From Schmidtea nova (lineage: Eukaryota): a stretch of 64,000 nt of DNA. The stretch covers positions 216,380,001-216,444,000 of the forward strand of contig CM097883.1 in assembly GCA_044892505.1 (NCBI GenBank). Direction: 5' to 3'. The notes below the pieces were generated by a model, which was not told where the DNA came from, searched no databases, and saw only the letters and a program-made list of their open reading frames with translations. The translations under genes were made by a program, and so were the position numbers. How positions within the stretch are numbered: position 1 is the stretch's first letter; every line of letters starts with the position of its first letter. Positions 34,801-52,916 of the stretch are shown here, in pieces.

Positions 34801-35136
34801 CTTCTGGTCGTGTAAGTCCTTATAACTTTCCTGATAAAATTTAATGTTGAGTTCTGCCGTTTTCCATATTTCCTGCATTCTTTCTTTGAATTTGGTTACG
34901 TAGTCGTCATCTTCCATATATTGCGATAATGGTGGCTGATACTCTAAATCTATGGGCATGTTGCATTCTCTTCCATACATAAGTTGAAATGGGCTTAGTT
35001 TTGTTGCTGCATGTATCGACATTCGGTATGCCATTAAACATAATTTTATGTATTCGTCCCAATCAGTCTGATGTCTGCTGACGTAATTTGATAACATTCT
35101 GATCAATGTACCATTGAATCGCTCCGTTTGTCCATT
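28861..35136 (-). CDS. 3' part of retroelement Pol: integrase C-half, ankyrin repeats and two FN3-like membrane modules
   Basis: NGQTERFNGTLIRML carries the catalytic E; GPY motif RPGRGPYEII; ankyrin-like units at ~34290-33030; repeated W...C...I-x-x-L...Y-x-I-C domains, signal-like segments and two TM helices. The first 23 aa of the ORF-track entry come from the Maverick TIR. Confidence 0.9.
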   Translation of the reverse strand, partial: NGQTERFNGTLIRMLSNYVSRHQTDWDEYIKLCLMAYRMSIHAATKLSPFQLMYGRECNMPIDLEYQPPLSQYMEDDDYVTKFKERMQEIWKTAELNIKFYQESYKDLHDQKKNVKANDLKPGDWVIIETPEIIPGTVKKLQRPGRGPYEIIYKKDNNVKVKLINRPLIRPIYVNTCRCKKVPKTITTTPENRIITRSQTARINMLRANATEDDKAEIRQKEIRNKEIILKAREIMGRWHVRDEAGISRDIRHIISRYAQGLPTEPIISELLEKIPEILLLKDVGGQPALHNAIECKNIERAKEFLKIAKETNQNLDVGNREQETPLMTAAIHQADKEMIDLLIKAHFSWTERDREDKTVLNHVIWSSHQPMLKYIIANSTWEIDELVKGDIIKEAIKIGKCNTIRKLVKWKRPEDDTWVLDINEVYSEGQNALLRYLLKFTCDQKTLLTLLDRGNINITKNEEEHQFDKEKNALFNKIRKWCAKPLDKLITYKDINNFNEKYQTIVSEYEELVKILNHPEKCKQVLEKKERESNKKLTPLFKAEAPYQARLDAIQEKAKELLPEFENSKHALEILGALVEKVHAYAKGTYNGNDITTIKKEMPVTFLLPKDGIMPIHRALRNGKDRKVMEIARVMLNCGSNMNRVDEKGDTLMVFAARAKTKTKVLEELYKAGAGLTGKTDKDNSILDVALLTHNWEMVSFIKTVSNQKEIEYLTKTIKKPSVLTMMHNVELTESILTWINPNTNEPAFRINEFTEHNQNWCIRSALITYKWPEILKMFMERKDLRITTSPKEEKYTGKWKELMKTYINNWIKAKKEILEYKSTNKVIPEQVETQEFEASNLTTLAYAKLIEEINVEDDIFDEPGGDDNTDSDDGNNSENSNDHEPPDKEENERKDKKRDKEEKKSEDEKQRDEDGEQGKNDQGDKNDTQRTGYKSTIKPFFKPELLLLTMIITLINPSQGMTCEERAIIQIKNAEGIERVCWSKKDKITEQNSPMDCRISEHEQEIIEINDLDLNTWYKICTVRKQKHPRSHNTIACAKYQTPKAAMTIQQSPKGDYILGKCGRTETQGTENKKPQAIDKQTTPTIRITIKRPEARVATNETERVSYQMEVLCLALILIIIKRLEEGIEIETMTITEVEDTQNTNIKCWARNDEEIGVNEIRKSRKPTTNKVIKVSEVRADKMYKLCLLEKERNKKGTTKCKTFQPGEVIKFRRRTRKRNKQIKRKVNITLEIKEIEPNVKGVCWRKYEKEVNKRTTPQCRTNTGTTTIQIKGLESKQTYEICLVKKNDQITINDLECGIHTTSSGTRTKTLTRKNKRKQRNKGKPKYTTTFKSNKQPISQEVTTKPERKTSATLTLWKIENKTLEICWIIVQKHIRRQSRECRKTNKEIRIEKLQFNSEYEVCTIEKMNTLGNQQERCETYYTPANATSKGVARKLEFKELSQTNEQMDAEKIITDPQAKWTPEEVIKEVKRKQEEREQLMRKLKGQYGIMFNQSESIQTDENKEIKELIGLGILTATIPVIIALSAIWIRKINPRKSTTQWLNIDNTSHGVEILEEKAREETNKKETKSGKLGINNEDKEIKEIKGEEKKYERRTRSLPQSSKWLGLTIILTLINREEATNLQAGIKIVNVQEVEKICWNREDEPIGKDNPLKCIIRKSDQDIVRIEGMDRGIMHRICIIGKEKKSGLPKTVVCQKYETPRLEWYRVKPTKKEIKNTIDQPATQIRNTTDKPGEGEKSTNNTRERTSPQQECVCIALIIAMSKRFDRGIIIEQMAITIRKTSSNKLCWGTYNEPRKEYQVQTSDESQTNKEIEIQEIQMNEEGSICIWEKGIQEGIEHCKTFQKGEILKFDEEELTKTERTLTLTGLDQTVKGICWTKHNPEGEEGNLTHCKETGNKEKVELKKMEVNKTYAICTFTRKGSEKPECGLYQISEKLQQQIEPGNVENRTKENNVKQLLNRHWSTQEVMNKVKNQVQKEKKPEAQTQNEIKANQNKIKATNRGKTVIGLISIGILIAYGIMTTSMIIYGRYRKRNKATAIQWPDIKIMKQRIEIPEEIQQELQRRTKGKEFWKQIEDEERYEEKTIMMV

Positions 35137-36241
35137 AGTAGACAGAAGTGTGCACCATGAGTCATCGCAGAACAAAGGAAATGACGTCATCGATGAGTCA
35201 TCCATGACCCCCCCGATGACTCATAAATGACGTCATCGATGACTCATAAATGACGTCATCGATGACTCATAAATGACGTCATCGATGACTCATCGATGAC
35301 TCATCGATGACTCATCACATGACTCATCGATGACTCATCGATGACGTCATCGATGACTCATTTCAAATTTGAATTTTATGACGTCATCGATGACTCATTT
35401 CAAATTCAAATTTTAAATTTAAATTCCCAAGGGTCCGATAAGGTCAGACCTTCAAACAAGGGTATCATTCGAAAGGTCTTTTAAAGGTCTATCCAATGGT
35501 CATACCCTCGAGGGTGTATGGAGGATCCTTAACCTTCAAAGGGGTCAAAAACCTTCAACCTTTTACAATCCTTATAATATACATATCAAACAAAAGGTAA
35601 TTGGGAGGTAAGTAAGATGGTCATACCCTCGAAGGTGTATGGAGGATCCTTAACCTTCAAGGGGTCAAAAACCTTCAACCTTTTACAATCCTTATAATAT
35701 ACATATCAAACAAAAGGTAATTGAAGGGTGCACACAATGGTCATACCTTCCAAGGTCTATGGTGGGTGCTCAACCTTCAAAGGGTACAAAACAAGGATAT
35801 AAAGGTAAGTACGGTTTTCTTAATGACTCATCAGTATGACTCATTGGGATGACTCATTAGTATGACTCATCAATATGACTCATCAGTATCACTCATTGGT
35901 ATGACTCATCAGTATGACTCATCAGTATGACTCATCAGTATGACTCATCAGTATGACTCATCAGTATGACTCATCAGTATGACTCATCAATAAATATTAA
36001 CAAAGACAATGCAATCCATGTGCAAAGAAACAAAGACAATGCAATCCATGTGCAACGAAACAAAGACTAATGAAATATAATATTTAATAATAATAATTTT
36101 GTACAGAGATAAATTGTGTGTGTGTGTGTTTAAGACAAATCACAGTACTCATTGAACGCGCGTGAAACGCGCGTTCTTCTTCCTTGTTTTATAAGACAAA
36201 TCACAGTACTCATTGAACGCGCGTGAAACGCGCGTTCTTCT
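35137..36241 (+). repeat. Left TIR (at least 1105 bp) with internal tandem arrays
   Basis: Reverse complement of 51834-52916, differing by one extra 23-bp unit and a 7 versus 8 C run. Contains 11-13 bp TGACTCA/TGACGTCA arrays, ~120-bp direct repeats and two ~58-bp repeats. Confidence 0.95.
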
Positions 36242-36258
36242 TCTTCCCTTGTTGTTTA

Positions 36259-36295
<37 letters not shown>

Positions 36296-36299
36296 TTAT

Positions 36300-36902
36300 T
36301 TATTTATAAATATATTGTTGCGAACGTGTACAAAATTTGGATTCAAAATTATTACTACTAGGAATATTATTCATAGGAACATTATTTACAGGAATTTTAT
36401 TCTTATTAATATTCTCTAACCTTATCGATGTTGCCAATATCAAGATCATTATTAATATGAATAAACTTATGTAATGTAAAACTATCGATGTTTTTTCGCT
36501 TTCAACTGTCTGATTTTGGTATCTGACTTCATATTGTTTTTTAACAATTGTTTGATTCGTACATTTCAAACTTTCAACAATTTTCATCATTATTTTCAAC
36601 ATTATTTTTTCCATTTCTTTATTAATCAAATCATTTTTTGAAGGACATTGTAATTTTATTTTGCTAATTATTTTTTCAATATCATTATTATTAATCAAAT
36701 TATTTTTTGAAGGACATTGATCACATTGTAATTTTATTTGATTGCATTCAGTGTTTGAGTAAACACATATTTCATTATAACTCGCACAAGTACTATCTTC
36801 TCTTCTAAACGGATGGGTTGATTGGCAAGCTTCTAAAGCCTGTTCTCCATCAGTATTTTGAACACACAATAAAAATACAAACATGGTTATAAGCAGTTTC
36901 AT
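36300..36902 (-). CDS. Maverick cargo: signal peptide, Cys-rich ectodomain and TM (~200 aa)
   Basis: MKLLITMFVFLLCVQNTDG from ATG 36902; internal duplication IKLQC(DQC)PSKN(N/D)LIN; TM IVLHYISLFILIMILILATSI. Confidence 0.7.
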   Translation of the reverse strand: MKLLITMFVFLLCVQNTDGEQALEACQSTHPFRREDSTCASYNEICVYSNTECNQIKLQCDQCPSKNNLINNNDIEKIISKIKLQCPSKNDLINKEMEKIMLKIMMKIVESLKCTNQTIVKKQYEVRYQNQTVESEKTSIVLHYISLFILIMILILATSIRLENINKNKIPVNNVPMNNIPSSNNFESKFCTRSQQYIYK

Positions 36903-36967
36903 TTTAAATAAATACAAAATAAAATAAAAAACTAAATTTGTTCATAGTAAAATTTATTAAATAACAA

Positions 36968-37384
36968 TTAGGCGTATCGTGCATTATCAACTCTCCAAAT
37001 TGGAGTTGTCACTTCCTTTTTATCAACCTTGTATCCTTGAATGATTATCGTAACGAACCAGTGTTCTTGATCAATGAAATCGATTGTTTGATAAGCATTA
37101 TGGAAACGAGTCTTCCTGTTATTGATATACATCGTTTCTTTACAAATTAAATTCACATTGATTTTTGAAAATACTCTATTTAGTGCGATAATATCCTCTT
37201 TATCAATAATAATAGATAGACTATCATACAACGACTTTGTTAATTTTACGGGATAAGATAAGCGAAACGGAATTTCTTCTACCAAGAAATAGATTCGGCT
37301 ATCATAATACATCTGGACTGGTTTCACCTCAGTCGGGAATAATCTTTCTTCGCTGACATCATAACCTCGTTTTCGTGAATCCAT
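36968..37384 (-). CDS. Maverick hypothetical protein (~138 aa, probable start MDSRKRG)
   Basis: Intact ORF; the region upstream of it is conserved in element B. Confidence 0.6.
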   Translation of the reverse strand: MDSRKRGYDVSEERLFPTEVKPVQMYYDSRIYFLVEEIPFRLSYPVKLTKSLYDSLSIIIDKEDIIALNRVFSKINVNLICKETMYINNRKTRFHNAYQTIDFIDQEHWFVTIIIQGYKVDKKEVTTPIWRVDNARYA

Positions 37385-37927
37385 TTTTATAAATTGTGAC
37401 AAATTTGTAGAAATGACTTTGTATTTATAGTGAGGACTGGATGCCTTTGTCCAATCACAATCATGCATTTGTATTGCACACGTTATACATGTCTTTGTTG
37501 TAAGTGTGTGTGTGTTGTATATGTTCAAGTAATAAGCTTTTGCATATAAAAACCATAACAAAAGATGTACTGATAGTAAGGGTCTGTAAGTGGATAAAAT
37601 ATTTATTTATATCACAATAATTTATTTTACAATAATTTTTTTTATAAAAAATACTATTTTTAACCTTGGTAAATAAAAAGTTTAATAATTACTCAAAGTT
37701 AAAATAATTAATTAAATTCATAATAATAATTTAAAGTTAAATAAAAAATTATTAATAACTATTACTAAAAACTATTAAAAAACTAAAACTATTTCTTAAA
37801 AAACTGTTACTTAAAAAACTAAAAAACTAATACTAAAAACTAATAAAAACTAAAACTGAAACTAAAAACATTTATTAATATGAAAAACCTAAAAAATCAC
37901 TGTTTACAAATACACACAAATTGATAA

Positions 37928-38476
37928 TCAATGTTCTTCAGGAACTCGGTGACATTCGTCACAATCTGGAGATTCGGGAGACTCCATCGGCTCATCGGAT
38001 TCGATTGGATATGGCCCATCTAGAGTTGGGCAATCAGAATGAGCCGGACAATCTGTAGAATCCATCGATTGATCCGGAGTTGAATTTGGCCATGGCTCCT
38101 TGATATCTTCTTCCTCAATTGTTTCCAGCTGCGAATCGAATTCCTTCAATGCGTTTCTGAGAACCCAAATGTGGTATTTTCGGATCCTCTCGACACAATG
38201 ATCGCATTGATAAGCGCATAATATATGCTCAGCAATGACGGGCAAATCATTGTGGATATTGGCGATATGATCCAAAATTATTTTATTGAGATCGATGCCG
38301 GTCAGCATTTGAATCTTGTACGGCAGAATTTCTGGTGCCGTGTATGCCAAGGTAGGCATTAATTTCGGGAAGATTTCTTCGAGCTTGCCCAGGACCACGT
38401 TCATCAGTTTTCCTGAAAAAGAAATAATATTAAATTTGAAAAAAGATTAATTAAAATCTTTACCATTTTTAATCAT
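37928..38476 (-). CDS. Maverick hypothetical protein with a CxxxCxxC motif; exons 38476-38464 and 38412-37928
   Basis: A 51-nt GT-AG intron joins MIKNG in frame to KLMNVVLG; CAYQCDHC; S/P/D-rich tail. Confidence 0.6.
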
Positions 38477-38670
38477 ATTTTCTTCTAAGCACATTTTTAA
38501 TTCTAAATTATGAGAGAATGTTCTTAGTATATATACGATAGAAACACACATCATGTACGAAATGAACAACTTTCAACCAATAAGAATAAAGTATGCACAA
38601 CATGTCTTTATTCTATCGATACACACTCGACCAATCAGAATCGTGCATTTCCATTGCATGAATATTGCAG

Positions 38671-39138
38671 TCATGAGTCACATGTTAGTATGAAATCAAC
38701 AAAGGCTTTATCTTCTATAATTGATTTTATATCGTTAATAATATTATCAACTATATTAGTATAGTCTTTATTTTTTAATCCTAATATGACTACTTTACCA
38801 CTAGCAAAAATATTGACACACATTGGATTATATTTTGTATATCTTAAAGCTGGAAATAATTCTGGTTCATAAACACATGGAATCAATTTAGATAACTCAT
38901 TTAAATTACAAATAAATCCTAAATCTGCAGTCACAGTTATCGATTGTATTGTTAAATCGTGAGACTTTACTTTTTCATCACTAATAAATTCCTTGCATCC
39001 CATTATTCTATATCTGCCTGTCTTAAAGTATATTATTGGGTATTTTCCACTTCTATCTACAATTTGCTGTGGTTTCCCAGTTGGAAATATCATGTGCGAC
39101 ACATCTGTCTTACCCTTGTAATTAATGTTTCTAATCAT
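38671..39138 (-). CDS. TATA-binding-protein-like protein (155 aa)
   Basis: YEPELFPALRY...NIFASGKVVILGLK matches the TBP second-repeat signature YEPELFPGL...LIFxSGKVVxTGAK. LTIQSITVTADL and IIYFKTGRYRIMG match the inter-repeat strand and the first repeat. Confidence 0.82.
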   Translation of the reverse strand: MIRNINYKGKTDVSHMIFPTGKPQQIVDRSGKYPIIYFKTGRYRIMGCKEFISDEKVKSHDLTIQSITVTADLGFICNLNELSKLIPCVYEPELFPALRYTKYNPMCVNIFASGKVVILGLKNKDYTNIVDNIINDIKSIIEDKAFVDFILTCDS

Positions 39139-39224
39139 TATTAAAAATATTTTAAATCTAACAACAAAGAGATAATTAATATTTTAATCAATATAAACAA
39201 TAATACTAATAAATAATTACAAAC

Positions 39225-39848
39225 ATGGAATTAAGAAATGATGCAGTTTATCAAATTGTCGGTCCGAGCGGGAGCGGAAAAACTTTATTTGTTTGTAAAT
39301 TATTACAATCTAAATTATTCAAATCAAAATTTAATAAAATTTATTGGCATAGGGGTGCTGACGACGAAAGCGGAATGACTCAAGATCAGTTTTGTAAAAT
39401 AAAAATGACAATCATAAAAGGTTTCGATAAAAACTGGTCATCTAGATTAAGAGAAGGGGATGTGATTATTATTGATGACTTGTATCAAGAAGCAAATAAA
39501 GAAAAGGATTTTAATAATTTATTTACGAAAATCGCTAGACACAAAGGTGTTACAGTTATTTTTATTACTCAGAATTTATTTCATCAGGGTGGTAGTCATC
39601 GAACTCGTAATTTAAATGTTCAATATCTTGTTGTTTTTAAAAATCCTCGTGATGCAACAGTTATTGATTTTCTGGCAAGACAAGCTTATCCTTCTAATCG
39701 GAATTTCTTGATTGATGCGTTTCAGGATGCTACAAAATCTCCTCATGGATATCTTTTCTTGGATTTTACGCAACAATGCAGTGATGATTTAAGAGTTAGA
39801 ACTGATATTTTTAACAAGGAAGGAGCCATGGTTTATAAACAAAGTTAA
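39225..39848 (+). CDS. Maverick DNA-packaging ATPase (FtsK-HerA/A32 type)
   Basis: Walker A GPSGSGKT, Walker B IIIDDL, ARHKGVTVIFITQN, VVFKNPRD. Confidence 0.93.
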   Translation: MELRNDAVYQIVGPSGSGKTLFVCKLLQSKLFKSKFNKIYWHRGADDESGMTQDQFCKIKMTIIKGFDKNWSSRLREGDVIIIDDLYQEANKEKDFNNLFTKIARHKGVTVIFITQNLFHQGGSHRTRNLNVQYLVVFKNPRDATVIDFLARQAYPSNRNFLIDAFQDATKSPHGYLFLDFTQQCSDDLRVRTDIFNKEGAMVYKQS

Positions 39849-39868
39849 ATATATTTACAGTAGTAATC

Positions 39869-40405
39869 ATGTTAATGAAATCTAGAGTAAAGTTTGAACG
39901 CTTGATAAAGGCAAGAAAAACAATGAAGAAAACAAAGAAAACAAAGAAAACAAAGAAATCAGTTTCGAAACCCGTTTCTAAAACAAGTTATACTCCTTCG
40001 AAAAAACTAATTATGGATAATTTTCCCAAACAAAATCAAATTCCCCCTATTTTGAAATCTAATCCGAAACAAATACATCATCGGAGTTTTCCGTTTTTTA
40101 ATGCATTGCTAAAAGCCCCCAGTGCTAGAAGAATGGGTATTCTTCAGTCGTTTCCCAATTACGTCATTGATGATTTACTCGCTATTTTAATTAAAGTCGT
40201 ACGAGGTAAAATGAATCTAACTCCTTCTAATCGTCGGGTTTTGAACAAGCATAAAAAACCATTGTTATCACTTGTAAAAACAAAAAATAAAAAACTTATG
40301 CGTAAAATAATATATAAACAACAAGGAGGGTTTATTGCTGCATTATTACCCCTAGCTTTATCGTTATTAGGTGGTGCTGGTTTATTGGGAAAAAGAACGT
40401 CATAA
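39869..40405 (+). CDS. Basic core protein with an adenovirus pX/mu-like C-terminus
   Basis: Very K/R-rich; ends KQQGG|FIAALLPLALSLLGG, similar to adenoviral pX MRGG|xLPxLIP. Confidence 0.7.
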   Translation: MLMKSRVKFERLIKARKTMKKTKKTKKTKKSVSKPVSKTSYTPSKKLIMDNFPKQNQIPPILKSNPKQIHHRSFPFFNALLKAPSARRMGILQSFPNYVIDDLLAILIKVVRGKMNLTPSNRRVLNKHKKPLLSLVKTKNKKLMRKIIYKQQGGFIAALLPLALSLLGGAGLLGKRTS

Positions 40406-40408
40406 ACA

Positions 40409-40621
40409 ATGGGTCAATCATTACCTAATTTAAATTTAAACTTTAAATCTTCTTGTTGTAATGGAGAAGATCTGGACGAACCCGAAAGACGAAGCCGGTT
40501 TCGGTGGAGTCGAAAAGTTAAGGAAAAAAGTACAGAAGTCGAAACAACAGACACAAAGCTGGTTATCGGGGCAACTTGCATACAGTCTAAACAAACCGAT
40601 GCTGAAACGGTTTCCAACTAG
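40409..40621 (+). CDS. Possible small myristoylated protein overprinted on the integrase 5' end
   Basis: MGQSLP...SSCC; ATG 3 nt after the upstream stop; overlaps integrase in another frame. Confidence 0.4.
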   Translation: MGQSLPNLNLNFKSSCCNGEDLDEPERRSRFRWSRKVKEKSTEVETTDTKLVIGATCIQSKQTDAETVSN

Positions 40622-41505
40622 ATCATATAAAACGTATAGAATCAATGATTTGTGGCAAATGGATTTGATGGAAATGATTCCGTATTCAAAAATTAACAAG
40701 GGATACAAGTATATTTTAACATGTATTGATGTTTACAGTCGTTTTGCGCGGGCAATCGCAGTAAAATCGAAATCTGGTAATGATATGGCAATCGCGATCA
40801 AAGCAATGATCAAAAAGGATCGTCCAACAAATTTACAAACCGATTTGGGTAAATTTTAATTATAATTTATTGATTTAATATTTTTTAGGTAAGGAATTTT
40901 ACAACAGTAAAGTCAAGGAAGTTATCAAGGGAATCAATCATTATTCGGTATTCTCGCAATTCAAAGCCGCTCATGTCGAGAGATTTAATCGTACATTACG
41001 AGATCGGCTCAAAAAATATTTTGTACATCAAGGTAATAAAACATGGATTAATGTTTTACCACAAATGATCCATAGTTATAATCATTCTGCTCATCGAGGT
41101 ATAAATGGCAGGAAACCTGCAGAAGTAGTTAATACTGAAAATATCGTGAGTGATACAATAATCAAGAAACCGAAATATAAAATAGGTGATCATGTTCGAA
41201 TTAGTAAAATTAGTGCATCGCCATTCATTAAAAATTTTGATAGTAATTGGAGTGATGAGGTATTTAAAATATCGAAGGTCAACACAGTCCAGAATCCTGT
41301 CATGTATACTATTTCTGACTCTGATAACAATATAGTCAGTGGGAAATTCTATGAACAAGAATTACAAGTTATACCTCCACCTACAATATTTAGAATTCAA
41401 AAAATATTGAAAACTAAAATGGTAGGTAAGGATAAACAATACTATGTCAAATGGCATGGATATAAAGAACCATCATGGATATCGTCAAAAAACATAGTAA
41501 AATGA
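40461..41505 (+). CDS. Maverick retroviral-like integrase with C-terminal chromodomain; exons 40461-40848 and 40889-41505
   Basis: WQMDL (D1); QTDLG|KEF (D2, joined across a 40-nt GT-AG intron); HVERFNRTL (E); chromodomain YYVKWHGYKEPSWI. Confidence 0.93.
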
Positions 41506-42518
41506 ATTTTTATATGATTCTACCTAGCAATAGTTGCCCGAATATCCATCCAGATAATACCGCAAGTAAATTCATGGTCAATTTGCAAAATCCTATTTAT
41601 TTACAAGGAAATTGGGAAGTTGCTCTATTGGATTTTACATTTGTTTACCAACCTTTTCCTTATTATAGTCAATGTAAAATTTTTTACAATAAAATAAGAA
41701 CGACTGTTGCATATGCATTTTTCTCGATATATAATGATAGTGGCGAGCTTAATGTTCCAACTCACACTATTGATCCAGATATCGAAATGCGGTATAGAAG
41801 TGGCAGAATTCTTCTCACATGTAATTTTCTTCCTTATACAATTACATTTAATAATCTTGATGATGCAAAACGAATGGGAAGTAATAAACTGACATTCACA
41901 TGTAATGAAGAAGAATGTGAATTCAGAGTTTTGCAAAAAGCTGGTAGCAAAGATGAAGAAGTATTTAATTTCAGTATATCTTATAATAGAGATGAACGAC
42001 ATGTATTCACGTTCAAGAATGACTTGTATATAACGCATCTAGATGAATTACAGAAATATATTTCCGATAATTGTTCGGATATTTTTACTATTGTTGAATT
42101 AAATAAATTGTTCAAATTCAAACTAAAAGAAAATATTTCTAATGTGAGATTTGATAAATACCTTGTCCATACATTGGGATTAGATAAGGATACATTTAGC
42201 GGTAAAAATATCGTTTCTGGTGTTCGTCAACCGAAAATATCTAAGCTTCATCAGCAATTATTCATATACAGTAACATTATCGAACCGATAATTGTTGGAG
42301 ATTCTTTGGTTCCTTTACTGAAATCGGTATGGATCGAAAAATACGAGGTAGATGAAATTGTTCAAATACAAATAGAAAATCCAATGTATTTATCGCTTTC
42401 GAATTCATGTATAAACAATATAGAAATAAATATCAGGGATGATATTGGAAGATTAATAAACTTTCCAAAAGATTCAAAAACTCATTTAACTCTACATTTT
42501 CGAAAAAACGATGAGTAA
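41502..42518 (+). CDS. Maverick minor capsid (penton-like) protein
   Basis: FYMILPSNS...NTASKF...L-x-G-x-WEVAL at the N-terminus and LFIYSNIIEP...GD...LL...Y...I.INIRDD.G...F...THLTLHFRK at the C-terminus; ATGA overlap with the integrase stop. Confidence 0.88.
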   Translation: MNFYMILPSNSCPNIHPDNTASKFMVNLQNPIYLQGNWEVALLDFTFVYQPFPYYSQCKIFYNKIRTTVAYAFFSIYNDSGELNVPTHTIDPDIEMRYRSGRILLTCNFLPYTITFNNLDDAKRMGSNKLTFTCNEEECEFRVLQKAGSKDEEVFNFSISYNRDERHVFTFKNDLYITHLDELQKYISDNCSDIFTIVELNKLFKFKLKENISNVRFDKYLVHTLGLDKDTFSGKNIVSGVRQPKISKLHQQLFIYSNIIEPIIVGDSLVPLLKSVWIEKYEVDEIVQIQIENPMYLSLSNSCINNIEINIRDDIGRLINFPKDSKTHLTLHFRKNDE

Positions 42519-42891
42519 TCCCGATATAGTTTCTTTGTACAGTAATAGCCAAACTGGTGGCGAATTACCGTATTTTGTAGGTAAACAGTATGGATCAGGT
42601 TGGTTGAAAACTATTGGTAGATTTGCACTTCCAATACTTAAGCGATTAGGTAGTTTTGGATTCAATACTGCCAAGGATGTTATCATGAAAGATAATAAAA
42701 TATTACCATCATTGAAAACAAATGCTTTGGCCGCAGTTAATAAAGCTATACCTACTGTAACAAAAATGATTCCTTCAATTACAAATATGTTTACAAAAAA
42801 TGAACCTGAACCTGTACCAGTAGGACCAAGACGTAAACGAAGACGTATAAACAAACGAATGAAAGGTCATGGAACTATATTTGAAGAATGA
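42511..42891 (+). CDS. Small virion protein with protease-site-like motifs and an amphipathic helix (pVI-like)
   Basis: QTGG and QYGSG motifs, WLKTIGRFALPILKRLG helix, basic tail PRRKRRR; lies between the minor and major capsid genes. Confidence 0.7.
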   Translation: MSNPDIVSLYSNSQTGGELPYFVGKQYGSGWLKTIGRFALPILKRLGSFGFNTAKDVIMKDNKILPSLKTNALAAVNKAIPTVTKMIPSITNMFTKNEPEPVPVGPRRKRRRINKRMKGHGTIFEE

Positions 42892-44108
42892 TTTGCGGTA
42901 AATCTGAATTATGTATTTTTGATCGACCAAGCCCCCAAGCAGTTATTGAATATGGGGTGTTTGAAGATGTGTTTCCAATGAATTCTATTACAGATAGTAG
43001 AAATGATGTTGAATTTTACATTAATGGATCGGCAACCGAATATTTGGATTTGAACGATACGTTATTATCCGTTACGGTCAAAGTTGTAGATAAAGATAAA
43101 AATAAATTAGTTGATGCGAGTGATGTAGTACCTAATAATTACTTGTTTCATACACTTTTCAAAGATGTGATTCTTGGATTTAATAATATAAAAATCGAGG
43201 GTGGAAACAATACATATGCACACAAGGCAATAATCGAAACTATTTTAAATTATACTAGTGATTCAAAAGAAACTTGTCTTACTCCAATGGGATATGGTGC
43301 AAGCGACGATAGAAAAAAGTGGATCAAGGGATCGAAACTTTTTAACATGTGTTCATCATTACAACTTGATTTTATGGATCAACCTAAATACTTACTTCCC
43401 GGAGTTAATGTACATATTAGATTGAAGCGATCTGATTCTGCATTATCACTGAAATCGGCAACTGGGAAACCAATACTCCAATTAGTAGACGCTAAATTAA
43501 TGGTAAGAAGAGTTCGGTGTGAATCTTCAGTTTTGGCCGGTCATCAAATTGGTTTAAATAGCAAACATGCAATTTATCCGATAAAATCCAAAGAAATAGT
43601 TTCGTTTGCTATTGGGAAAGGTGCATCGTCATTTTACAAGGAGCAAATATTTGGAGATAGAAGAATGCCTAATTTCATTCTTGTGGCTTTTCAAACTGAA
43701 AATCAATATAACGGATCATATGCTGAATCTTCATCTTCATTCAAACACTTTAATGTAACTTCATTATCATTATCGAAAAATACCGATTATCGAGAAACTT
43801 ATACTCAAGATTTTGAAAATGATAATTTTAGTGCCACATATATGCAAAGTCTTGTCCGAAATTTAGGATATTTGGATAAAAACTTGAATTGTGGTATAAG
43901 TCTGGATGAATTTAAAGCAAAATATCCATTCTTTACATTTGTTCTGGCTCCCGATTTCGATTTGAATCAAAGTCAAATCCCACAAAACGGTAATTTAAGG
44001 CTAGATATAAAGTTTGCAAAACCCATTGATGAACCGGTTCATGTAATTATATATGGATTGTTTGAAAATGAAGTACAAATTACTGCCAATCGAACAGTAC
44101 TGGTTTGA
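42888..44108 (+). CDS. Maverick major capsid protein (double jelly-roll)
   Basis: SELCIF...Q, VEFYING...YLDLNDT.L, KYLLPGV..HIRLKRS, GNLRLDIKFAKP; 406 aa. Confidence 0.92.
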   Translation: MICGKSELCIFDRPSPQAVIEYGVFEDVFPMNSITDSRNDVEFYINGSATEYLDLNDTLLSVTVKVVDKDKNKLVDASDVVPNNYLFHTLFKDVILGFNNIKIEGGNNTYAHKAIIETILNYTSDSKETCLTPMGYGASDDRKKWIKGSKLFNMCSSLQLDFMDQPKYLLPGVNVHIRLKRSDSALSLKSATGKPILQLVDAKLMVRRVRCESSVLAGHQIGLNSKHAIYPIKSKEIVSFAIGKGASSFYKEQIFGDRRMPNFILVAFQTENQYNGSYAESSSSFKHFNVTSLSLSKNTDYRETYTQDFENDNFSATYMQSLVRNLGYLDKNLNCGISLDEFKAKYPFFTFVLAPDFDLNQSQIPQNGNLRLDIKFAKPIDEPVHVIIYGLFENEVQITANRTVLV

Positions 44109-44158
44109 GCAGAGCTCAAACAGTATAAATAACCAAAGTTATTATTATTATTATAATT

Positions 44159-44535
44159 ATGGAGTAAGTTTTTAATTGAATAATTATTTATTTTTAATTA
44201 GTTCTATTCAGGTATTACAACAAGGTAAAAAACTATTGGGAAACCAATTTCTTGGAGTTTTTCCGTTAGATAAAATTCCTTATTTGAAAATGAATCAAGC
44301 CATCATTGTAAATACTCACACTTCTACTTTGGGCGGTGAACATTGGATTGCGGTTTACGTGAAACCGGATCGAATACATGTATTTGATCCCTTTGGATAT
44401 TATTATCCAAATTTACTTGTTCGAAAATTGCAAACTATTGGTAAACCTATTGTGTATAATAGAATTCGGTATCAACATCCATTAACAATCACTTGTGGAC
44501 AACATTGCCTTGCATGGCTAAAATCTATGTTATAA
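44159..44535 (+). CDS. Adenain-like cysteine protease; exons 44159-44163 and 44202-44535
   Basis: Catalytic H (GEHWIAV), D (FDPFG) and C (TCGQHC). A 38-nt GTAAGT...TTAG intron gives the start MDSIQVL. Confidence 0.9.
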
Positions 44536-44567
44536 ACAATTTAGTTTAATAAATGTTATTGTAAAAA

Positions 44568-44969
44568 ATGACTTGTTATTTTATTGATATGTACGGTTAT
44601 AATGATATTGGAGGAACAATTATTAAGGAATTATGCATTATGAATGTAAATAGTATTTTCACACCCTTGTATTATATATACAGTGATTTATCTTTCTGGC
44701 CTGATCGTATAGAATCGTTTGAAGGACAAGATTATTTTTGCCCAAAATGTATAATGGATGATATTGAAAATAAAGGAGCTATATTCTATGTTACAGATAA
44801 TGAAAAGTTGCAAGTTTTAAAGAAATATTTCCCGAAATTGAGATTAATTAAATATAATTTTAAAGAATTTGAAGATGTTCCAGAAAATATCTCATGTCCA
44901 TATAAAGACCATAGTATGTGTGCATATAAAGGATGCTTGTCTGGTGTAATTGATTATTTAAAACAATAA
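44568..44969 (+). CDS. Maverick small protein, possibly DEDD-exonuclease-like
   Basis: N-terminal IDMYGY...IKELCI and C-terminal CPYKDHSMCA resemble a recurrent Polinton ORF; assignment by eye only. Confidence 0.5.
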   Translation: MTCYFIDMYGYNDIGGTIIKELCIMNVNSIFTPLYYIYSDLSFWPDRIESFEGQDYFCPKCIMDDIENKGAIFYVTDNEKLQVLKKYFPKLRLIKYNFKEFEDVPENISCPYKDHSMCAYKGCLSGVIDYLKQ

Positions 44970-45475
44970 ATGTATTATTCGTGTTTTATTATTATTAATA
45001 TTAATATTATTAATATTTTTATAAACTTGCAGAATTCACATCCAATTTGCAGATTAACATCCATCTAGCTATACTTTTCGATAATTATAAAGAAATTGCA
45101 TGCAGGCACGCATGCAGACACTCAATTATTTCACATATAAATCGACTTGGGTGTATTCACATCTGCATCTACACCTATAAGATATTTCATAAACACTTTA
45201 GTCACGTAGTGTCTTTGTATCGTTGCATCCGACATGCATCGTGCAATATAACAAAGACATGATTCATACTTGGTGAGTGAATTATTAACACACATACTTG
45301 GTGAGAGATTTTTAACATACATACTCAGTGTGCACACATACTTTTTCTACCCTATCTCGCTTGTGATTGGCTCGTGAATAAAGTTTGTAATAAACGTGAT
45401 ATATACTATATGTTTTCATTATTTCGTCACAATTTAAACAATCTTTTAAAAATTTCAAATTATTATTATTAAACA

Positions 45476-46031
45476 ATGAACAACATTTCTCAATCGATTA
45501 AAGAAAATATCCGTAGGAATAGATTTGGTAATTTCTATTTTATTTATTTTATAAATTTTATAACAAATTAATTATAGGAAAAATGAATCTCAACATGAAG
45601 ATTTCAACCAATTTAAATACCGAAAAAGATACTGAAAAAGAGAATGAAAATGGTAAAAATTTTAAAAAATACTAATTTCATTATTGTTATTATTATTATT
45701 ACAGTAACAAATGTACAATTAACAACTCAATACTATGCAGCTAGCAGAAACGAAAGATTAAACGTTGATATCGATGGTAATTGTTTCTTTTATTTATTAT
45801 TATTAAATGATTAATTTAAAGCCGAAGAAACTTCCGAAATTAATATGCCCCTGATTAGGGAAGATCAAAATATGCCCCTGATTAGGGAAGATCAAAATAT
45901 GCCCCTTATTAGGGATGAACCCATGCCCCTTATTAGGGATGAACCCATGCCCCTTATTAGGGAAGAAAGTATGCCCCTTATTAGGGATGTTGCTGCACCA
46001 GAAGATGATCGCTATAATGGTCGGCAGAAAT
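45476..46031 (+). CDS. Multi-exon ORF with MPLIR(E/D) repeats; exons 45476-45527, 45578-45652, 45705-45776, 45822-46031 (3' end unresolved)
   Basis: Three GT-AG introns (50, 52, 45 nt) all in phase 1 keep one frame that matches ORF 45845-46096; probable further donor GTACGT at 46032. Confidence 0.6.
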
Positions 46032-46199
46032 GTACGTTTTTATTTATTTTTTATAAATTATTTATAAATTATTTATTTCAATTTTTTATAAATTAACTTT
46101 TATTGTACAAATTTTATTTATAAGTTCTATTTTATTATTTAATTATAACATCAAAGTTATTAAATAATAAAATAGTAATTATAAATAAATATTATACAA

Positions 46200-46490
46200 T
46201 AAAAATAAACTATGAAAATTTTATTTAAATGATCGATTTTATGACAATGAAACTATGAAAATTTTATTTAAATGATCGATTTTATGACAATGAAACTATG
46301 AAAATTTTATTTAAATGTTCGATTTTATGACAATGAAACTATGAAAATTTTATTTAAATGATCGATTTTATGACAATGAAACTATGAAAATTTTATTATA
46401 ATGATCGATTTTATGACAATGAAAATTTTATTATAATGATCGATTTTATGACTATGAAAATTTTATTAAAAAGATTGATTTTATGACAAT
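46200..46490. repeat. 43-bp tandem repeat (~6 copies) upstream of PolB
   Basis: Unit AAACTATGAAAATTTTATTTAAATGATCGATTTTATGACAATG at 46207, 46250 and onward. Confidence 0.9.
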
Positions 46491-46661
46491 CTTATTTTAT
46501 GAGAAAATATATTTTATGAGAAATGATAAATTATAATATTTTTATGATACATGACATTATTATACATCCGATATTGAATTTATAGTTTAAATTCAATATC
46601 GATTGTATAATAATTATTATATACTTTATAACATTATTTTTTATAATAAAATCTTGATATT

Positions 46662-49600
46662 TTGATAAATTTAGGTAAACTATACAGTTCTTATTGTAAT
46701 AGTACTTTTCATAATGACTGTCATAGTCTTATGGAAAAGTACTATTATTACAAATATAATAGTATTTTTTACCTTATTTGCCCTACTTGCAAAACTTTAC
46801 AAACATGCACATACATCGAATTCTACAATACACATAGAAACCATTTAACACAATTCAATGGTTCTAAAAAGAATTTGTTTAACTCCATTTTTGCTAATAC
46901 TATTAAACAAAATAATGTGGACAGTGTTCCCAAATTATTAAAAAGTAATGTGGACTGCGTTCCCAAACAAGTAATTATTAATGTGGACTCTGTCCCAATC
47001 TCTTGCAATGTGGACTGTGTTCCCAACCAAATAATCAATAATGTGGAATGTGTTCCCAAATTATTAAAAAGAACAAATACAGAAACAGTTTGTGAAACAC
47101 CAAATAAAATAGGTAAATTTGAGGTTATTGATATAAGTGACGATGATGACGATGTGGTTGTTATTTCGTCAGATGAAGAGGAAATAGACCCTATAGTTTT
47201 AAACTGTTACTCTGTTAAGCAAATAGGTTTAGGGTTAATATCTGTTGATTCTGATCTCAATAATTCGCACATCATCGTTAAGATGGATGTTGCACATTTA
47301 AATTTAAATAATCTTTCTGTTCCATCTCTTTTACTAGAAAAATTAACATCGATTATTTCTGCCATGAAATCTGTTAAGATCCAATTTTGTATAAAGGTTG
47401 AAATGATGAAAGACGATGAATACCAGTCTTTTGTCATTTCAAATTCAGCGCGTGTATGGACGACTGATTTCATTGATGAGGGCGTTACACATCTCAACGA
47501 AAAAATTATCCAAATGAACGAGAAGGGTTCAAATTGGAAATTAAATAAAATAGAATATATTAGTTTTGTAATAACGAAATACTCTGAAATTACCAGATTA
47601 AGAGGTAAAAAATTTCTTTCAACACCGAAATCTTTACTGAATAAGGATTGCATTATCAATGTCAATAACACCGACAATCTTTGCTTCCTTTATAGTGTCT
47701 TGTCTGTTAAAAATTATAATCAGGTTGATGATGAAATTCGACATTTACCAACAACTTATAACTTGACATCACTTCGCTTTGATATAAATGATATGCCAAT
47801 GAAGCTAAGTAACATTAGCAGATTTGAATTATCAAACCCCGGTTATGCAATTAATGTATTATCGTATGACGAAAATGCGTTAGTTGACTTGACTAATAAA
47901 AGTGAAGTGATGAAACATCCATTCATCGATATTATCTATAAAAGTAAAGTAGTGGGGGGCACTGTCATAAACCTACTTTTAATTGAAAATAAAAAAGAAT
48001 TTCATTACGCAGGAATATATAACATCGACAAATTTTTAAATTGTAAAACTTCGGCGATAACCCCAGTGAGAATTTATAATAAATGGTGTCCTAGGTGCTT
48101 GCATGGCTTCCGTAATTCAGATACATTCAAGAGACATCGTGGTCTTTGTGATGCCAACCAAATAGGCACAACTTTGTATACACTTCCTAATAATAAATTT
48201 TTACGTTTTAGCGACTGGACGAAGACAGTGACCCCTCCTTTTGTAATTTATGCCGATTTTGAGGCAATTTTACCTCGCGACTCGAAATATTACCAAAAAC
48301 ATTTGCCCATTTCTGCGGGTTTATTACTTATTAATAATTTCACTGGGGTTAAATTATATAAATCCTTCTATGGCCTTGATTGCGTTGCCAAATTCCTGCA
48401 AGAAATTGAAAATATAAGTCGAAAAATTGTAACGCCCTATTATTTCGCAAATAAAAATAAGCAAATAATATTAACCTACGAAGACATGCAACATTTTTCT
48501 TATGCAACACACTGCTACTTGTGTGAAAATATTTTAGTAAATCCTGTTAAAGACCACGATCACTTTACAGGTGCTTACCTAGGAGCAGCATGCAACGAAT
48601 GTAATATAAATAGGCAAATTCGACACACTTTGCCGATAGTTTTTCATAATCTACGGGGATATGATTTACATCATATCCTCAAATTCGGACTTTCTAAATA
48701 CGAATCGTGGAACATTAGCTGTGTTCCTGTCACCAGTGAGAAGTTTCTCAGTCTTTTTGCGAGAATCGGATCACTCACAGTGAAGTTTATCGATTCGTAT
48801 CAATTTGCCAGCGAATCTCTAAATAACTTAGTAAAAACTCTAACATCTTTTCCTCTTACTTCTTCGGAATTTACCGGGACTATTATCACCAGTAAGGGAA
48901 TTTTTCCATATGATGTTGCTACATCTTTATCTGTCTTGAGGTCGATCACTGAATTGCCGCCGATTTGGGAAGGTGTCGAAATTGCTGATTATGAAAAGGC
49001 AAAAGAAATATGGAGAGAAAATTCGTGTACCTCATTATTTGATTATATGATGGTTTACATGAAACTCGACATATTTCTTTTGGCTGATTATTTTCAACAA
49101 TTTCGTGCAAAGAGTATAGCTCATAATAAACTTGAGCCGTTGAATTTTTTGGGTATACCAGGTATGAGCTGGTGTTCTGCATTAATGACTTTGGAATCTC
49201 CTATCGAGCTTTTGCAAGATATGGAGATGTACAACTTTTTTGAGGGTGGAATCAGGGGCGGCCTCACTTTCGTTAATAAACATCATGTTAAATCAGGCCC
49301 AGATACAGAGTTGCTGTATATAGATATTAATAATCTGTATGGCTGGGCTCTTTCACAAAACTTACCGGACGGGGACTTTGTTTGGGTCACGGATGACCAC
49401 TTGCTTCATGACATCTTGTTGGAGTGCACTACGGTTGATTTATGTTCACTTAACTATGGTTATACCATAGAAGTGGATTTAGAGATACCGGCATCTATTC
49501 ACGACTTACTGGATGATTTACCAGTAGCTGCTGAAAAGATGTGTGTGCCAGGTTCGAAGGTGCATAAGTTGCTTTTGACGCACATGCCTAAGAAAAACTA

Positions 49601-50708
49601 TGTGCTTCATTGGCGACTTTTGCAGATGTTTCTGAGGTTAGGTGTTGTAGTGACCAAAATACATCGAGCTATTAAATACCATCAAAGTAGGCTTTTTAAG
49701 AAATACGTTGATACAAATACTGCTTTGAGAGCTTCTTCCACCACGAAACTCGACAAAAATTATTTTAAGTTATTAAATAACAGTCTCTACGGCAAAACCG
49801 TAGAGAATCTGAAAAAACGTATAAATTTAAGACTGTGCAATTCGGCACGTAAATTAATAACATATAGCAGTAGCCCGTATTTTAGGAAATCAACGAAAAT
49901 TGACCATAATCTTATATCAGTGCTTTTGAGGAAGGAGTCTGTGTGTTTAGATAGGCCAAGTTATATAGGACAGACGGTCTTGGACTTGTCTAAACTAAGA
50001 ATGTATGAACTACAATATATAGAGTTAGAGAAATATAGGAAAGAGTTTAATTGTAAGATTAATATTGCAGCAGGAGACACAGACTCCTTTTTTCTTGAAA
50101 TTGTTAATTGTAGGCTTTCTGTTCTTTTGCCCGCTATGGTGAGGGATCAACTTTTAGATACTTCGAACTATGACCCGAGCCATCCCTTATTTTCGCGTAA
50201 TTTGGATTCAGTTATAGGAAAGTTTAAGGACGAAAATAAGGGCTTCAAATATGAAGAGTGGGTTTTTCTTCGCCCTAAATGCTATAGTTTACTTGGCGAC
50301 GAGGAGTGTTTAAAAGCCAAGGGCATATGTTTGGCTACTGCGGGACTTAACCATTCGCATTACCTAGACTGTTACACAACAAGTAAAATATATAAAGTCC
50401 CGCAGTTTCGTATAGTCTCAAAAAATCATCAGGTTTATAGTGTCAAAAATACAAAAACGGCACTCAATTGCAACGACGACAAACGCAATTGGGTGTCGAA
50501 AAACAAAAGTTTTGCATATGGGCACTATAGGGTAGAAAATACTATTATAGGTTATGATGAAACAATTACCCCAGCCGAACCTGATGGATTTGATGATGAG
50601 GAGTTCGATGATGGCGAAACGGCTGAATCGCGCAGACTCCACGAATACCTGGTGAGGATGGAGCAGCAATTGCGTGATCAGCCATCTACATCCACCGGTA
50701 TATATTGA
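46662..50708 (+). CDS. Protein-primed family B DNA polymerase with a terminal-protein-like N-terminal region
   Basis: CFLYSVLS, YADFE, EndoVII-like KDHDHFTG, FHNLRGYD, YIDINNLYG, KLLNNSLYGKT, AGDTDS. N-terminal NVD(S/C)VP repeats. True start uncertain (the ORF-track start is TTG). Confidence 0.96.
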   Translation: MINLGKLYSSYCNSTFHNDCHSLMEKYYYYKYNSIFYLICPTCKTLQTCTYIEFYNTHRNHLTQFNGSKKNLFNSIFANTIKQNNVDSVPKLLKSNVDCVPKQVIINVDSVPISCNVDCVPNQIINNVECVPKLLKRTNTETVCETPNKIGKFEVIDISDDDDDVVVISSDEEEIDPIVLNCYSVKQIGLGLISVDSDLNNSHIIVKMDVAHLNLNNLSVPSLLLEKLTSIISAMKSVKIQFCIKVEMMKDDEYQSFVISNSARVWTTDFIDEGVTHLNEKIIQMNEKGSNWKLNKIEYISFVITKYSEITRLRGKKFLSTPKSLLNKDCIINVNNTDNLCFLYSVLSVKNYNQVDDEIRHLPTTYNLTSLRFDINDMPMKLSNISRFELSNPGYAINVLSYDENALVDLTNKSEVMKHPFIDIIYKSKVVGGTVINLLLIENKKEFHYAGIYNIDKFLNCKTSAITPVRIYNKWCPRCLHGFRNSDTFKRHRGLCDANQIGTTLYTLPNNKFLRFSDWTKTVTPPFVIYADFEAILPRDSKYYQKHLPISAGLLLINNFTGVKLYKSFYGLDCVAKFLQEIENISRKIVTPYYFANKNKQIILTYEDMQHFSYATHCYLCENILVNPVKDHDHFTGAYLGAACNECNINRQIRHTLPIVFHNLRGYDLHHILKFGLSKYESWNISCVPVTSEKFLSLFARIGSLTVKFIDSYQFASESLNNLVKTLTSFPLTSSEFTGTIITSKGIFPYDVATSLSVLRSITELPPIWEGVEIADYEKAKEIWRENSCTSLFDYMMVYMKLDIFLLADYFQQFRAKSIAHNKLEPLNFLGIPGMSWCSALMTLESPIELLQDMEMYNFFEGGIRGGLTFVNKHHVKSGPDTELLYIDINNLYGWALSQNLPDGDFVWVTDDHLLHDILLECTTVDLCSLNYGYTIEVDLEIPASIHDLLDDLPVAAEKMCVPGSKVHKLLLTHMPKKNYVLHWRLLQMFLRLGVVVTKIHRAIKYHQSRLFKKYVDTNTALRASSTTKLDKNYFKLLNNSLYGKTVENLKKRINLRLCNSARKLITYSSSPYFRKSTKIDHNLISVLLRKESVCLDRPSYIGQTVLDLSKLRMYELQYIELEKYRKEFNCKINIAAGDTDSFFLEIVNCRLSVLLPAMVRDQLLDTSNYDPSHPLFSRNLDSVIGKFKDENKGFKYEEWVFLRPKCYSLLGDEECLKAKGICLATAGLNHSHYLDCYTTSKIYKVPQFRIVSKNHQVYSVKNTKTALNCNDDKRNWVSKNKSFAYGHYRVENTIIGYDETITPAEPDGFDDEEFDDGETAESRRLHEYLVRMEQQLRDQPSTSTGIY

Positions 50709-51833
50709 GGTAAATTTATTTATTATTTTATTCATTTTCATTATTATTATTATTATTATTATAGACTATACGCCAATAGGAAAAAGAAGAAGAAAAATAT
50801 TAAGAAGAATATTGATGATTTTTACTATGAACAAAGCTTTATTTGGAATAAATTGAATGGAAATAAATTTTTTAATTTAAAATAATTGTTGTTTTTTCCC
50901 TATTGGGTTATATTTTTTAAATATTTGTTGAATTTTATTTTTATAAGTTTTTATTATTTTTGTTAATATTATATTTTTTCTATGNNNNNNNNNNNNNNNN
51001 NNNNNNNNNNNNNNNNNNNNNNNNNNNNNNNNNNNNNNNNNNNNNNNNNNNNNNNNNNNNNNNNNNNNNNNNNNNNNNNNNNNNNNNNNNNNNNNNNNNN
51101 NNNNNNNNNNNNNNNNNNNNNNNNNNNNNNNNNNNNNNNNNNNNNNNNNNNNNNNNNNNNNNNNNNNNNNNNNNNNNNNNNNNNNNNNNNNNNNNNNNNN
51201 NNNNNNNNNNNNNNNNNNNNNNNNNNNNNNNNNNNNNNNNNNNNNNNNNNNNNNNNNNNNNNNNNNNNNNNNNNNNNNNNNNNNNNNNNNNNNNNNNNNN
51301 NNNNNNNNNNNNNNNNNNNNNNNNNNNNNNNNNNNNNNNNNNNNNNNNNNNNNNNNNNNNNNNNNNNNNNNNNNNNNNNNNNNNNNNNNNNNNNNNNNNN
51401 NNNNNNNNNNNNNNNNNNNNNNNNNNNNNNNNNNNNNNNNNNNNNNNNNNNNNNNNNNNNNNNNNNNNNNNNNNNNNNNNNNNNNNNNNNNNNNNNNNNN
51501 NNNNNNNNNNNNNNNNNNNNNNNNNNNNNNNNNNNNNNNNNNNNNNNNNNNNNNNNNNNNNNNNNNNNNNNNNNNNNNNNNNNNNNNNNNNNNNNNNNNN
51601 NNNNNNNNNNNNNNNNNNNNNNNNNNNNNNNNNNNNNNNNNNNNNNNNNNNNNNNNNNNNNNNNNNNNNNNNNNNNNNNNNNNNNNNNNNNNNNNNNNNN
51701 NNNNNNNNNNNNNNNNNNNNNNNNNNNNNNNNNNNNNNNNNNNNNNNNNNNNNNNNNNNNNNNNNNNNNNNNNNNNNNNNNNNNNNNNNNNNNNNNNNNN
51801 NNNNNNNNNNNNNNNNNNNNNNNNNNNNNNNNN

Positions 51834-52916
51834 AGAAGAACGCGCGTTTCACGCGCGTTCAATGAGTACTGTGATTTGTCTTATAAAACAAGGAAGAAGA
51901 ACGCGCGTTTCACGCGCGTTCAATGAGTACTGTGATTTGTCTTAAACACACACACACACAATTTATCTCTGTACAAAATTATTATTATTAAATATTATAT
52001 TTCATTAGTCTTTGTTTCGTTGCACATGGATTGCATTGTCTTTGTTTCTTTGCACATGGATTGCATTGTCTTTGTTAATATTTATTGATGAGTCATACTG
52101 ATGAGTCATACTGATGAGTCATACTGATGAGTCATACTGATGAGTCATACTGATGAGTCATACTGATGAGTCATACCAATGAGTGATACTGATGAGTCAT
52201 ATTGATGAGTCATACTAATGAGTCATCCCAATGAGTCATACTGATGAGTCATTAAGAAAACCGTACTTACCTTTATATCCTTGTTTTGTACCCTTTGAAG
52301 GTTGAGCACCCACCATAGACCTTGGAAGGTATGACCATTGTGTGCACCCTTCAATTACCTTTTGTTTGATATGTATATTATAAGGATTGTAAAAGGTTGA
52401 AGGTTTTTGACCCCTTGAAGGTTAAGGATCCTCCATACACCTTCGAGGGTATGACCATCTTACTTACCTCCCAATTACCTTTTGTTTGATATGTATATTA
52501 TAAGGATTGTAAAAGGTTGAAGGTTTTTGACCCCTTTGAAGGTTAAGGATCCTCCATACACCCTCGAGGGTATGACCATTGGATAGACCTTTAAAAGACC
52601 TTTCGAATGATACCCTTGTTTGAAGGTCTGACCTTATCGGACCCTTGGGAATTTAAATTTAAAATTTGAATTTGAAATGAGTCATCGATGACGTCATAAA
52701 ATTCAAATTTGAAATGAGTCATCGATGACGTCATCGATGAGTCATCGATGAGTCATGTGATGAGTCATCGATGAGTCATCGATGAGTCATCGATGACGTC
52801 ATTTATGAGTCATCGATGACGTCATTTATGAGTCATCGGGGGGGGTCATGGATGACTCATCGATGACGTCATTTCCTTTGTTCTGCGATGACTCATGGTG
52901 CACACTTCTGTCTACT
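51834..52916 (-). repeat. Right TIR (at least 1083 bp; inner boundary in the N gap)
   Basis: Reverse complement of the left TIR. Confidence 0.95.

Follow-up and report, generated by a model that had tools for sequence, protein, structure and literature searches.

The canonical TATA-binding protein (TBP) carries four intercalating Phe residues, with DNA kinks at base pairs 1-2 and 7-8, and its stirrup glutamates E144/E146 contact TFIIB (PMC10005294, excerpts). Beta- and gammaherpesviruses encode TBP-fold factors of their own (vTBPs: KSHV ORF24, EBV BcRF1 and HCMV UL87), which go together with a TATT box ~30 bp before late genes and with host Pol II; these vTBPs are large, bind Pol II themselves and belong to a six-protein complex (PMC6541308, excerpts). 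TBP homologs of the Nucleocytoviricota gave 23 BFVD matches at E<=0.001 in our search, many of them named TBP or TFIID, at 9-23% identity. As a rule, NCLDV genomes include RNA polymerase genes. For Maverick-like elements, the Fig. 5 legend of Starrett et al. 2021 (PMC8502044) lists a gene 'similar to TATA binding proteins' on MELD-virus/adintovirus-like maps. The element so labelled has an adintovirus-like PolB; this is a legend entry, which we set beside the family reported here by its label, and the accessible parts of the paper hold no structure, family survey or promoter analysis of the gene. Text searches of PMC8097293, PMC11161782 and bioRxiv 2026.10.13.758929 turned up neither TBP nor TATA. 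Apart from the Starrett legend label, we found no description of the TBP family or of its box in the literature within our scope, outside which lie subscription papers and Repbase reports.

Here we describe a compact TBP encoded by a Maverick/Polinton element in a 64,000-nt window of Schmidtea nova contig CM097883.1. The protein shares with cellular TBPs the saddle fold (Z 11-12 over 133-142 residues), the C-terminal Phe pair, one N-terminal Phe and the stirrup glutamates, at 21-30% identity in structural alignments. It differs from them in its length (155 aa versus a cellular core of ~180 aa), in a first repeat that lacks H1, a full H2 and one Phe, in its place on a mobile element and in its pairing with a box that has C at position 7 (C7). 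The likeness to the herpesvirus vTBPs lies in a virus-encoded TBP fold and would extend to a modified TATA box before late genes, with the function of the element protein predicted from sequence. Unlike the vTBPs, the element TBP is apparently a lone protein of 155 aa, wholly covered by the TBP fold, with no room for a herpesvirus-type Pol II-binding part; its sequence still identifies it as a TBP, and its TFIIB stirrup is retained. BcRF1 is a poor fold match to it (E 4e-3, 13% identity). Unlike NCLDVs, the element has no RNA polymerase gene by a Pfam scan of 14 element ORFs, from which the protease ORF was left out; several ORFs of the element have no assigned family.

The element and its compact TBP

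The TBP gene lies in a complete Maverick/Polinton whose insertion interrupted a gypsy integrase gene. The hallmarks of the group are present, namely long terminal inverted repeats (TIRs), AG...CT ends and a 6-bp target-site duplication (TCCATT flanks both ends), together with its gene set of protein-primed DNA polymerase B (pPolB), rve integrase and A32-like ATPase. The latter two were assigned by Pfam, and pPolB through its 66% identity to window ORF 12-2120, which matches DNA_pol_B_2 (E 7e-32). The features are as follows.

35137..52916, 17,780 bp: complete Maverick/Polinton, ends AGTAG...CTACT
35137..36241, + strand: left TIR, with a 1005-nt core 100% complementary to the right arm
36968..37468, - strand: ORF166, likely OB-fold single-strand DNA-binding protein (SSB), weak fold match
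38671..39138, - strand: compact TBP homolog, 155 aa (Pfam, PDB matches, AlphaFold, alignment)
39139..39224: divergent intergenic region, 86 nt with 10 G+C bases
39225..39848, + strand: packaging ATPase, A32-like (Pox_A32, E 1e-6)
39869..40405, + strand: ORF178, conserved basic Maverick protein, no Pfam match
40461..41505, + strand: integrase with chromodomain, split over two frames (rve Pfam match)
41502..42518, + strand: putative minor capsid protein, no Pfam match, synteny in relatives
42888..44108, + strand: putative major capsid protein, no Pfam match, synteny in relatives
44159..44535, + strand: putative adenain-type protease, predicted short intron
44568..44969, + strand: ORF133, conserved Cys/His-rich Maverick protein
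46731..50708, + strand: pPolB, 66% identical to window ORF 12-2120
51834..52916, - strand: right TIR

Several of these roles are putative: ORF178 would be a core protein and the ORF at 41502..42518 the minor capsid protein, and by their motifs and by synteny the ORFs at 42888..44108 and 44159..44535 would encode the major capsid protein and the adenain-type protease. The frame gap in the integrase gene is similar in relatives, which suggests an intron. The predicted short introns of the integrase (40860-41064) and protease (44164-44201) genes are conserved in some relatives; intact vertebrate Mavericks have been reported as intronless (PMC8097293, excerpts).

The sequence-only reading had described a TBP-like ORF of 155 aa with a clear second repeat, both Phe positions of that repeat and a shortened first repeat, and each part of this description was borne out. 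Pfam TBP PF00352 matches residues 62-134 (E 7.8e-15, 54.9 bits versus a cut-off of 22.9; the NCBIfam TBP models are archaeal only), and all 35 PDB sequence matches are TBPs or TBP fusions. The AlphaFold model, built on a 63-row alignment, has a pLDDT of 95, and its 44 Foldseek matches in the PDB at E<=0.001 are all TBP chains. Model residues 1-145 form a two-repeat saddle that aligns with residues 66-240 of yeast TBP (Z 11.6, rmsd 3.0, 138 aligned). The check by Foldseek and structural alignment thus found a TBP fold, and the objection that the protein might have none failed.

F38, F95, F111 and E93 are invariant in 63/63 aligned relatives, and E91 is present in 61/63; F95 sits in ELFPAL and F111 in NIFASG, both in the second repeat. 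The site of the first Phe of the first repeat is Q in 56 of the 63, with F38 retained in that repeat, so that three intercalating Phe residues are invariant and one is replaced, in departure from the canonical four. The canonical helices of the first repeat are likewise not kept, since H1 is absent from the model and H2 is reduced to a 6-residue helix; motif spacings in this repeat are ~10 and 13 residues below those of canonical TBP. The TFIIB-stirrup glutamates correspond to E91 and E93 and are kept as in canonical TBP. The gene is intronless, and its start Met is common to the element TBP and its relatives; on the strength of this shared start, a possible splice acceptor ahead of the ATG was discarded.

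The element is abundant in its host genome. All 150 scored matches of a genome protein search with the element TBP are 99-100% identical, and a 23-mer taken from the TBP gene has 1,576 exact matches, versus 0 for the reversed control. Over 1 kb, the 30 top-scoring own-genome loci share 98.7-100% identity; some of the Maverick expansion, at least, is therefore very recent.

Two neighbors of the TBP gene were checked as possible transcription partners. ORF166 lies next to the TBP gene in 18/56 metagenome loci and has a weak fold match to the Enc34 SSB (prob 0.97, E 0.07), while ORF133, a neighbor in 15/56, gave no PDB match. On the strand of the TBP gene lie ORF200 (36300-36902), a predicted secreted or membrane protein, and ORF158 (37928-38404), which is acidic and fast-evolving; neither has a family match. 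Short tandem repeats occur upstream of the pPolB gene (45845-46460), one set of which encodes PLIRE-like peptide repeats. The two TIRs hold 24 and 23 TGA[CG]TCA words and 6 and 5 TGACGTCA words in two tandem arrays, and the 15.6-kb interior holds 2 and 0, respectively. We take these words to be AP-1-like and CRE-like sites, and the arrays could, judging from the words themselves, be host stress-responsive enhancers for early genes.

The TATAAAC(A) box

Within the window, TATAAACA lies upstream of the ATPase, ORF178, major capsid and ORF133 genes. The corresponding sites and a canonical TATA box near the protease gene are listed below.

39192..39200, + strand: TATAAACAA box, intergenic, 33 nt upstream of the ATPase ATG
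39834..39842, + strand: TATAAACAA box, within the final codons of the ATPase gene, 35 nt before ORF178
42846..42854, + strand: TATAAACAA box, within ORF126, 42 nt before the ATG of the putative major capsid gene
44531..44539, + strand: TATAAACAA box, overlaps the stop codon of the protease gene, 37 nt before ORF133
44124..44131, + strand: canonical TATAAATA, 28-35 nt upstream of ATG 44159

Six TATAAACAA sites fall on the + strand within 39192-44539 (~5 kb) versus ~0.2 expected, while the count for the whole window is within chance (7 versus 3.6 expected, reached in 8/100 shuffles). Five of the six lie wholly or partly within the coding sequence of a preceding gene, in which the box word can arise from conserved codons, and two of the six are ~100 nt from the next ATG. 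The TIRs contain no TATAAACAA.

The box was then scored in TBP-bearing loci from metagenomes. Before de-duplication there were 45 TBP, 15 ATPase, 7 capsid and 13 ORF133 upstream regions, and a locus was kept only if it had a usable ATG and 70 nt of flank. Among de-duplicated loci, TATAAAC is found 25-60 nt upstream of the ATPase gene in 9/11, of the major capsid gene in 4/7 and of ORF133 in 6/9, or 19/27 when pooled, and upstream of the TBP gene in 0/29. The Fisher p of 5e-9 for 19/27 versus 0/29 is optimistic, as the box genes were pooled after inspection of the upstream regions. Background is low, with TATAAAC in 1.2% of windows and 0.3/27 in shuffles, and few of the putative minor capsid (1/7) and ORF126 (1/6) genes have the box in front of them. 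Its placement in relatives is mostly 32-48 nt upstream, and 17 of 23 ATAAAC sites begin at -32 to -39. The loci of the host's own genome, which are not independent of one another, show the box before the ATPase gene in 23/26 and before ORF178 in all 18 shown. Controls for orientation and position gave 0/27 for the reverse strand, 1/27 for GTAAAC and 1/27 for AATAAA, by which Forkhead and poly(A) readings of the box are disfavored.

The TBP gene has a different upstream region. Its relatives carry canonical TATA in 15/29 and an initiator-like TCA[TC][AT] in 25/29 (4/27 for the box genes); the element in the window has no canonical TATA within 80 nt of its TBP gene on that gene's strand.

The sequence-only reading had placed weight on a different site, the TATAAATA 28-35 nt upstream of the protease ATG. 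This box is indeed at 44124-44131, before ATG 44159, but it is a canonical variant with no fixed position in nine relatives, and the conserved word is TATAAAC(A). Moreover, ATG 44159 reaches the protease only via a predicted 38-nt GT-AG intron (44164-44201); a similar ATG and a donor-like word occur in two relatives.

A C at position 7 is compatible with binding by an ordinary TBP. The title of PDB entry 1qn3 names a TBP bound to a C-at-7 TATA variant, and in Arabidopsis 27% activity was left with a TATAAAcg variant (PMC10005294, excerpts). The box could be common to all Mavericks and be read by host TBP.

Distribution and origin of the TBP family

Of 95 protein matches of the element TBP, about 83 are of the same type by inspection, at 35-75% identity; a representative search returned 111 proteins at E<=1e-10, in which family members are mixed with canonical TBPs. 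Another gene of the same element is present in 39/56 metagenome TBP loci, and the remaining 17 are contigs of 1.0-3.1 kb with no foreign context by eye. Viral contigs yielded no relative, whether scanned with the ATPase sequence or with alignments of TBP, ATPase and capsid. Three TBP-domain clusters in the Atlas, with taxa based on 1-9 members, were uninformative.

The start codons of the TBP and ATPase genes are exactly 86 nt apart, as the sequence-only reading had stated. Its further point, that the two genes are divergent, holds for the host genome, where the TBP gene is present head-to-head beside the ATPase gene in 26/26 loci examined, but not generally: among 15 metagenome loci with both genes, 12 are co-directional, two head-to-head and one has TBP downstream. 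The divergent layout is therefore local.

Nine pairs of own-genome TBP genes gave dN/dS of 0.09-0.18 in eight cases, with the ninth saturated, and eight metagenome pairs gave 0.12-0.31. The Maverick-linked TBP family is under purifying selection. It includes a longer grade, mostly of 160-173 aa, which keeps the spacing for both first-repeat helices and has already lost the first Phe; one such member (L076) adjoins a Maverick ATPase and integrase. Sequence comparison of the two grades suggests that the first repeat shrank stepwise, with the Phe lost before the helices. A single query of the host genome found no long form. Another long-form gene (L085:2-358) lies near an ORF that by its motif resembles the parvovirus-like PLA2X of adintoviruses.

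In a 31-row tree, the TBP family is one clade (100/100), the stem of which measures 2.05 changes per site. The archaeal split places it with the eukaryotes (99/100), and the compact forms have a nested position (99/96); a quick 74-row tree gives the same picture. The trees were built without TRF2 and without most NCLDV TBPs. Three distinct viral-contig TBPs were included, two of which fall among eukaryote TBPs, while one joins the family on a very long branch. TRF2 has lost intercalating Phe residues (PMC10005294, excerpts), and the element family keeps three.

One possible origin, namely that the gene is a recently captured and decaying copy of host TBP, is barely credible and is refuted in its recent and decaying form. 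An AU test on the 31-row set did not reject the whole family as sister of host TBP (p=0.42). On the other side stand the single, fully supported clade with its long stem, compared with an end branch of 0.12 changes per site for host TBP, and the rejection of own-genome element copies grouped with host TBP (AU p=0.0002). The dN/dS of 0.09-0.18 and the intronless gene with its conserved start, against an intron-bearing host TBP gene, also speak against this origin. Nesting within host TBP, the check that the sequence-only reading had named, has thus been rejected for a recent capture. By these comparisons the capture of TBP is old and is not a recent one from this host; an ancient capture from some eukaryote is likely.

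The host itself has a canonical TBP and several divergent paralogs (L087-L091), two of which group with cestode TBP-like proteins; the best matches of one paralog are cestode proteins, which points to a flatworm as the probable host. The host TFIIB gene is split over exons, and a single-exon match in the TFIIB search is presumably Brf1, judging from a motif.

Proposed mechanism, its alternatives and the surrounding sequence

We propose, with a probability of about 0.62, that the element TBP is the element's own promoter-recognition factor, which would bind TATAAAC(A), recruit host TFIIB and Pol II and turn on the packaging and capsid genes. Host TFIID would transcribe the TBP gene first, because the upstream regions of its relatives often hold canonical TATA and mostly hold the initiator-like word. 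The protein would then bind DNA via its intact C-terminal half-saddle. The 3' half of a TATA box lies under the N-terminal repeat of TBP, and the remodelled N-terminal half of the element protein may read the C at position 7; the protein would prefer TATAAACA over TATAAAAG. The retained stirrup glutamates would recruit TFIIB. The first-repeat helix surfaces of TBP bind TFIIA, TAF1 and Mot1, and the loss of these helices may free the element TBP from TFIIA, TAF and Mot1 control. The outcome would be a one-gene early-to-late switch, in which "early" and "late" are gene classes that we infer; of the three box genes, ORF133 is not a known late gene.

That such a factor redirects Pol II to late promoters had already been supposed in the sequence-only reading. 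The conserved, gene-class-specific box is consistent with this idea, but the protease box on which it was built is not the conserved one. The other role offered there, a decoy, appears less likely. Here the box would be a weak promoter for host TBP or a paralog, and the element TBP a decoy or dominant-negative protein, which would lower host transcription by titrating out TFIIB or regulators of TBP. No surface is better kept than the TFIIB stirrup, as such a protein would have it, and base-contact positions differ from canonical TBP (M46 and L119, which we take to replace the canonical Thr pair, and S66, presumably in place of Asn). Several divergent TBP paralogs are present in the host, and host TBP tolerates C at position 7. 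However, the three Phe residues and the strands of the concave face vary little or not at all across a family at 40-62% identity, beyond what a pure TFIIB sponge needs. A decoy also leaves unexplained why a fixed C7 box accompanies one gene class and is missing upstream of the TBP gene, so we consider it unlikely.

The box data also fit a repressor or timer, in which the element TBP on the box silences packaging and capsid genes for as long as the element stays integrated, and in which, in the head-to-head layout, binding at 39192 would occlude its own promoter as well. The element persists at very high copy number (1,576 exact 23-mer matches), and in this genome 54-62 nt separate the box from the TBP ATG. 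Yet a blocker has no need of the conserved TFIIB-contact glutamates, and the head-to-head layout is found in only 2/15 metagenome loci, which makes this reading more doubtful than the decoy. Still less probable is a non-transcriptional role of the TBP at ends, origins or single-stranded DNA in replication or packaging, with the box read by another factor such as a Forkhead protein. The TBP gene is often beside the likely SSB gene (18/56 loci), and ATAAACA resembles a Forkhead site, but the TIRs lack TATAAACAA, and the Forkhead-preferred GTAAAC (1/27) and the reverse orientation (0/27) are rare or absent. The divergent TBP of Giardia binds single-stranded DNA, but it has lost three Phe residues (PMC12209930, excerpts), whereas the element family has lost one.

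It is tempting to go further, and we see even odds that a widespread Maverick clade uses an orthogonal Pol II code, in which a minimal single-gene TBP, its N-terminal half stripped stepwise, would pair with a private TATAAAC, escape host TBP regulators and turn on virion genes. This would be the smallest viral late-transcription system known to us, with a vTBP origin independent of herpesviruses. It would also imply that a TBP of altered specificity without first-repeat helices can work with host Pol II, and would offer a natural minimal mutant for TBP biology and possibly an orthogonal promoter tool. Animal Maverick particles have not been observed (PMC8097293, excerpts). For the timing of capsid genes in Mavericks/Polintons, a dedicated TBP with a fixed box would provide a concrete control point, and the box would serve as a sequence tag for late genes across this Maverick clade. 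With more than 1,000 near-identical TBP copies in the host, even leaky expression could affect host transcription.

The surroundings of the element are rich in other mobile sequence. A second Maverick subfamily (L099, L100) is represented by the pPolB at 12-2120 (66% identical to that of the element), followed by capsid and protease fragments at ~4511-5018, and shortly before the window starts there is a pPolB copy in inverted orientation. The segments 52893-63111 and 28861-35136 make up a large gypsy-type retroelement with gag, protease and RT, the integrase gene of which is split by the Maverick; it also has a fusion glycoprotein domain of Monjiviricetes type and a long ORF of ankyrin repeats. 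The first codons of the ORF at 28861-35205 lie inside the Maverick TIR. Beside the long ORF of the retroelement, a TRAF-like gene with zf-TRAF and MATH domains (25735-28286) is either a host gene or retroelement cargo, and a DDB1/CPSF-type beta-propeller host gene occupies 10293-16646 in at least two ORFs.
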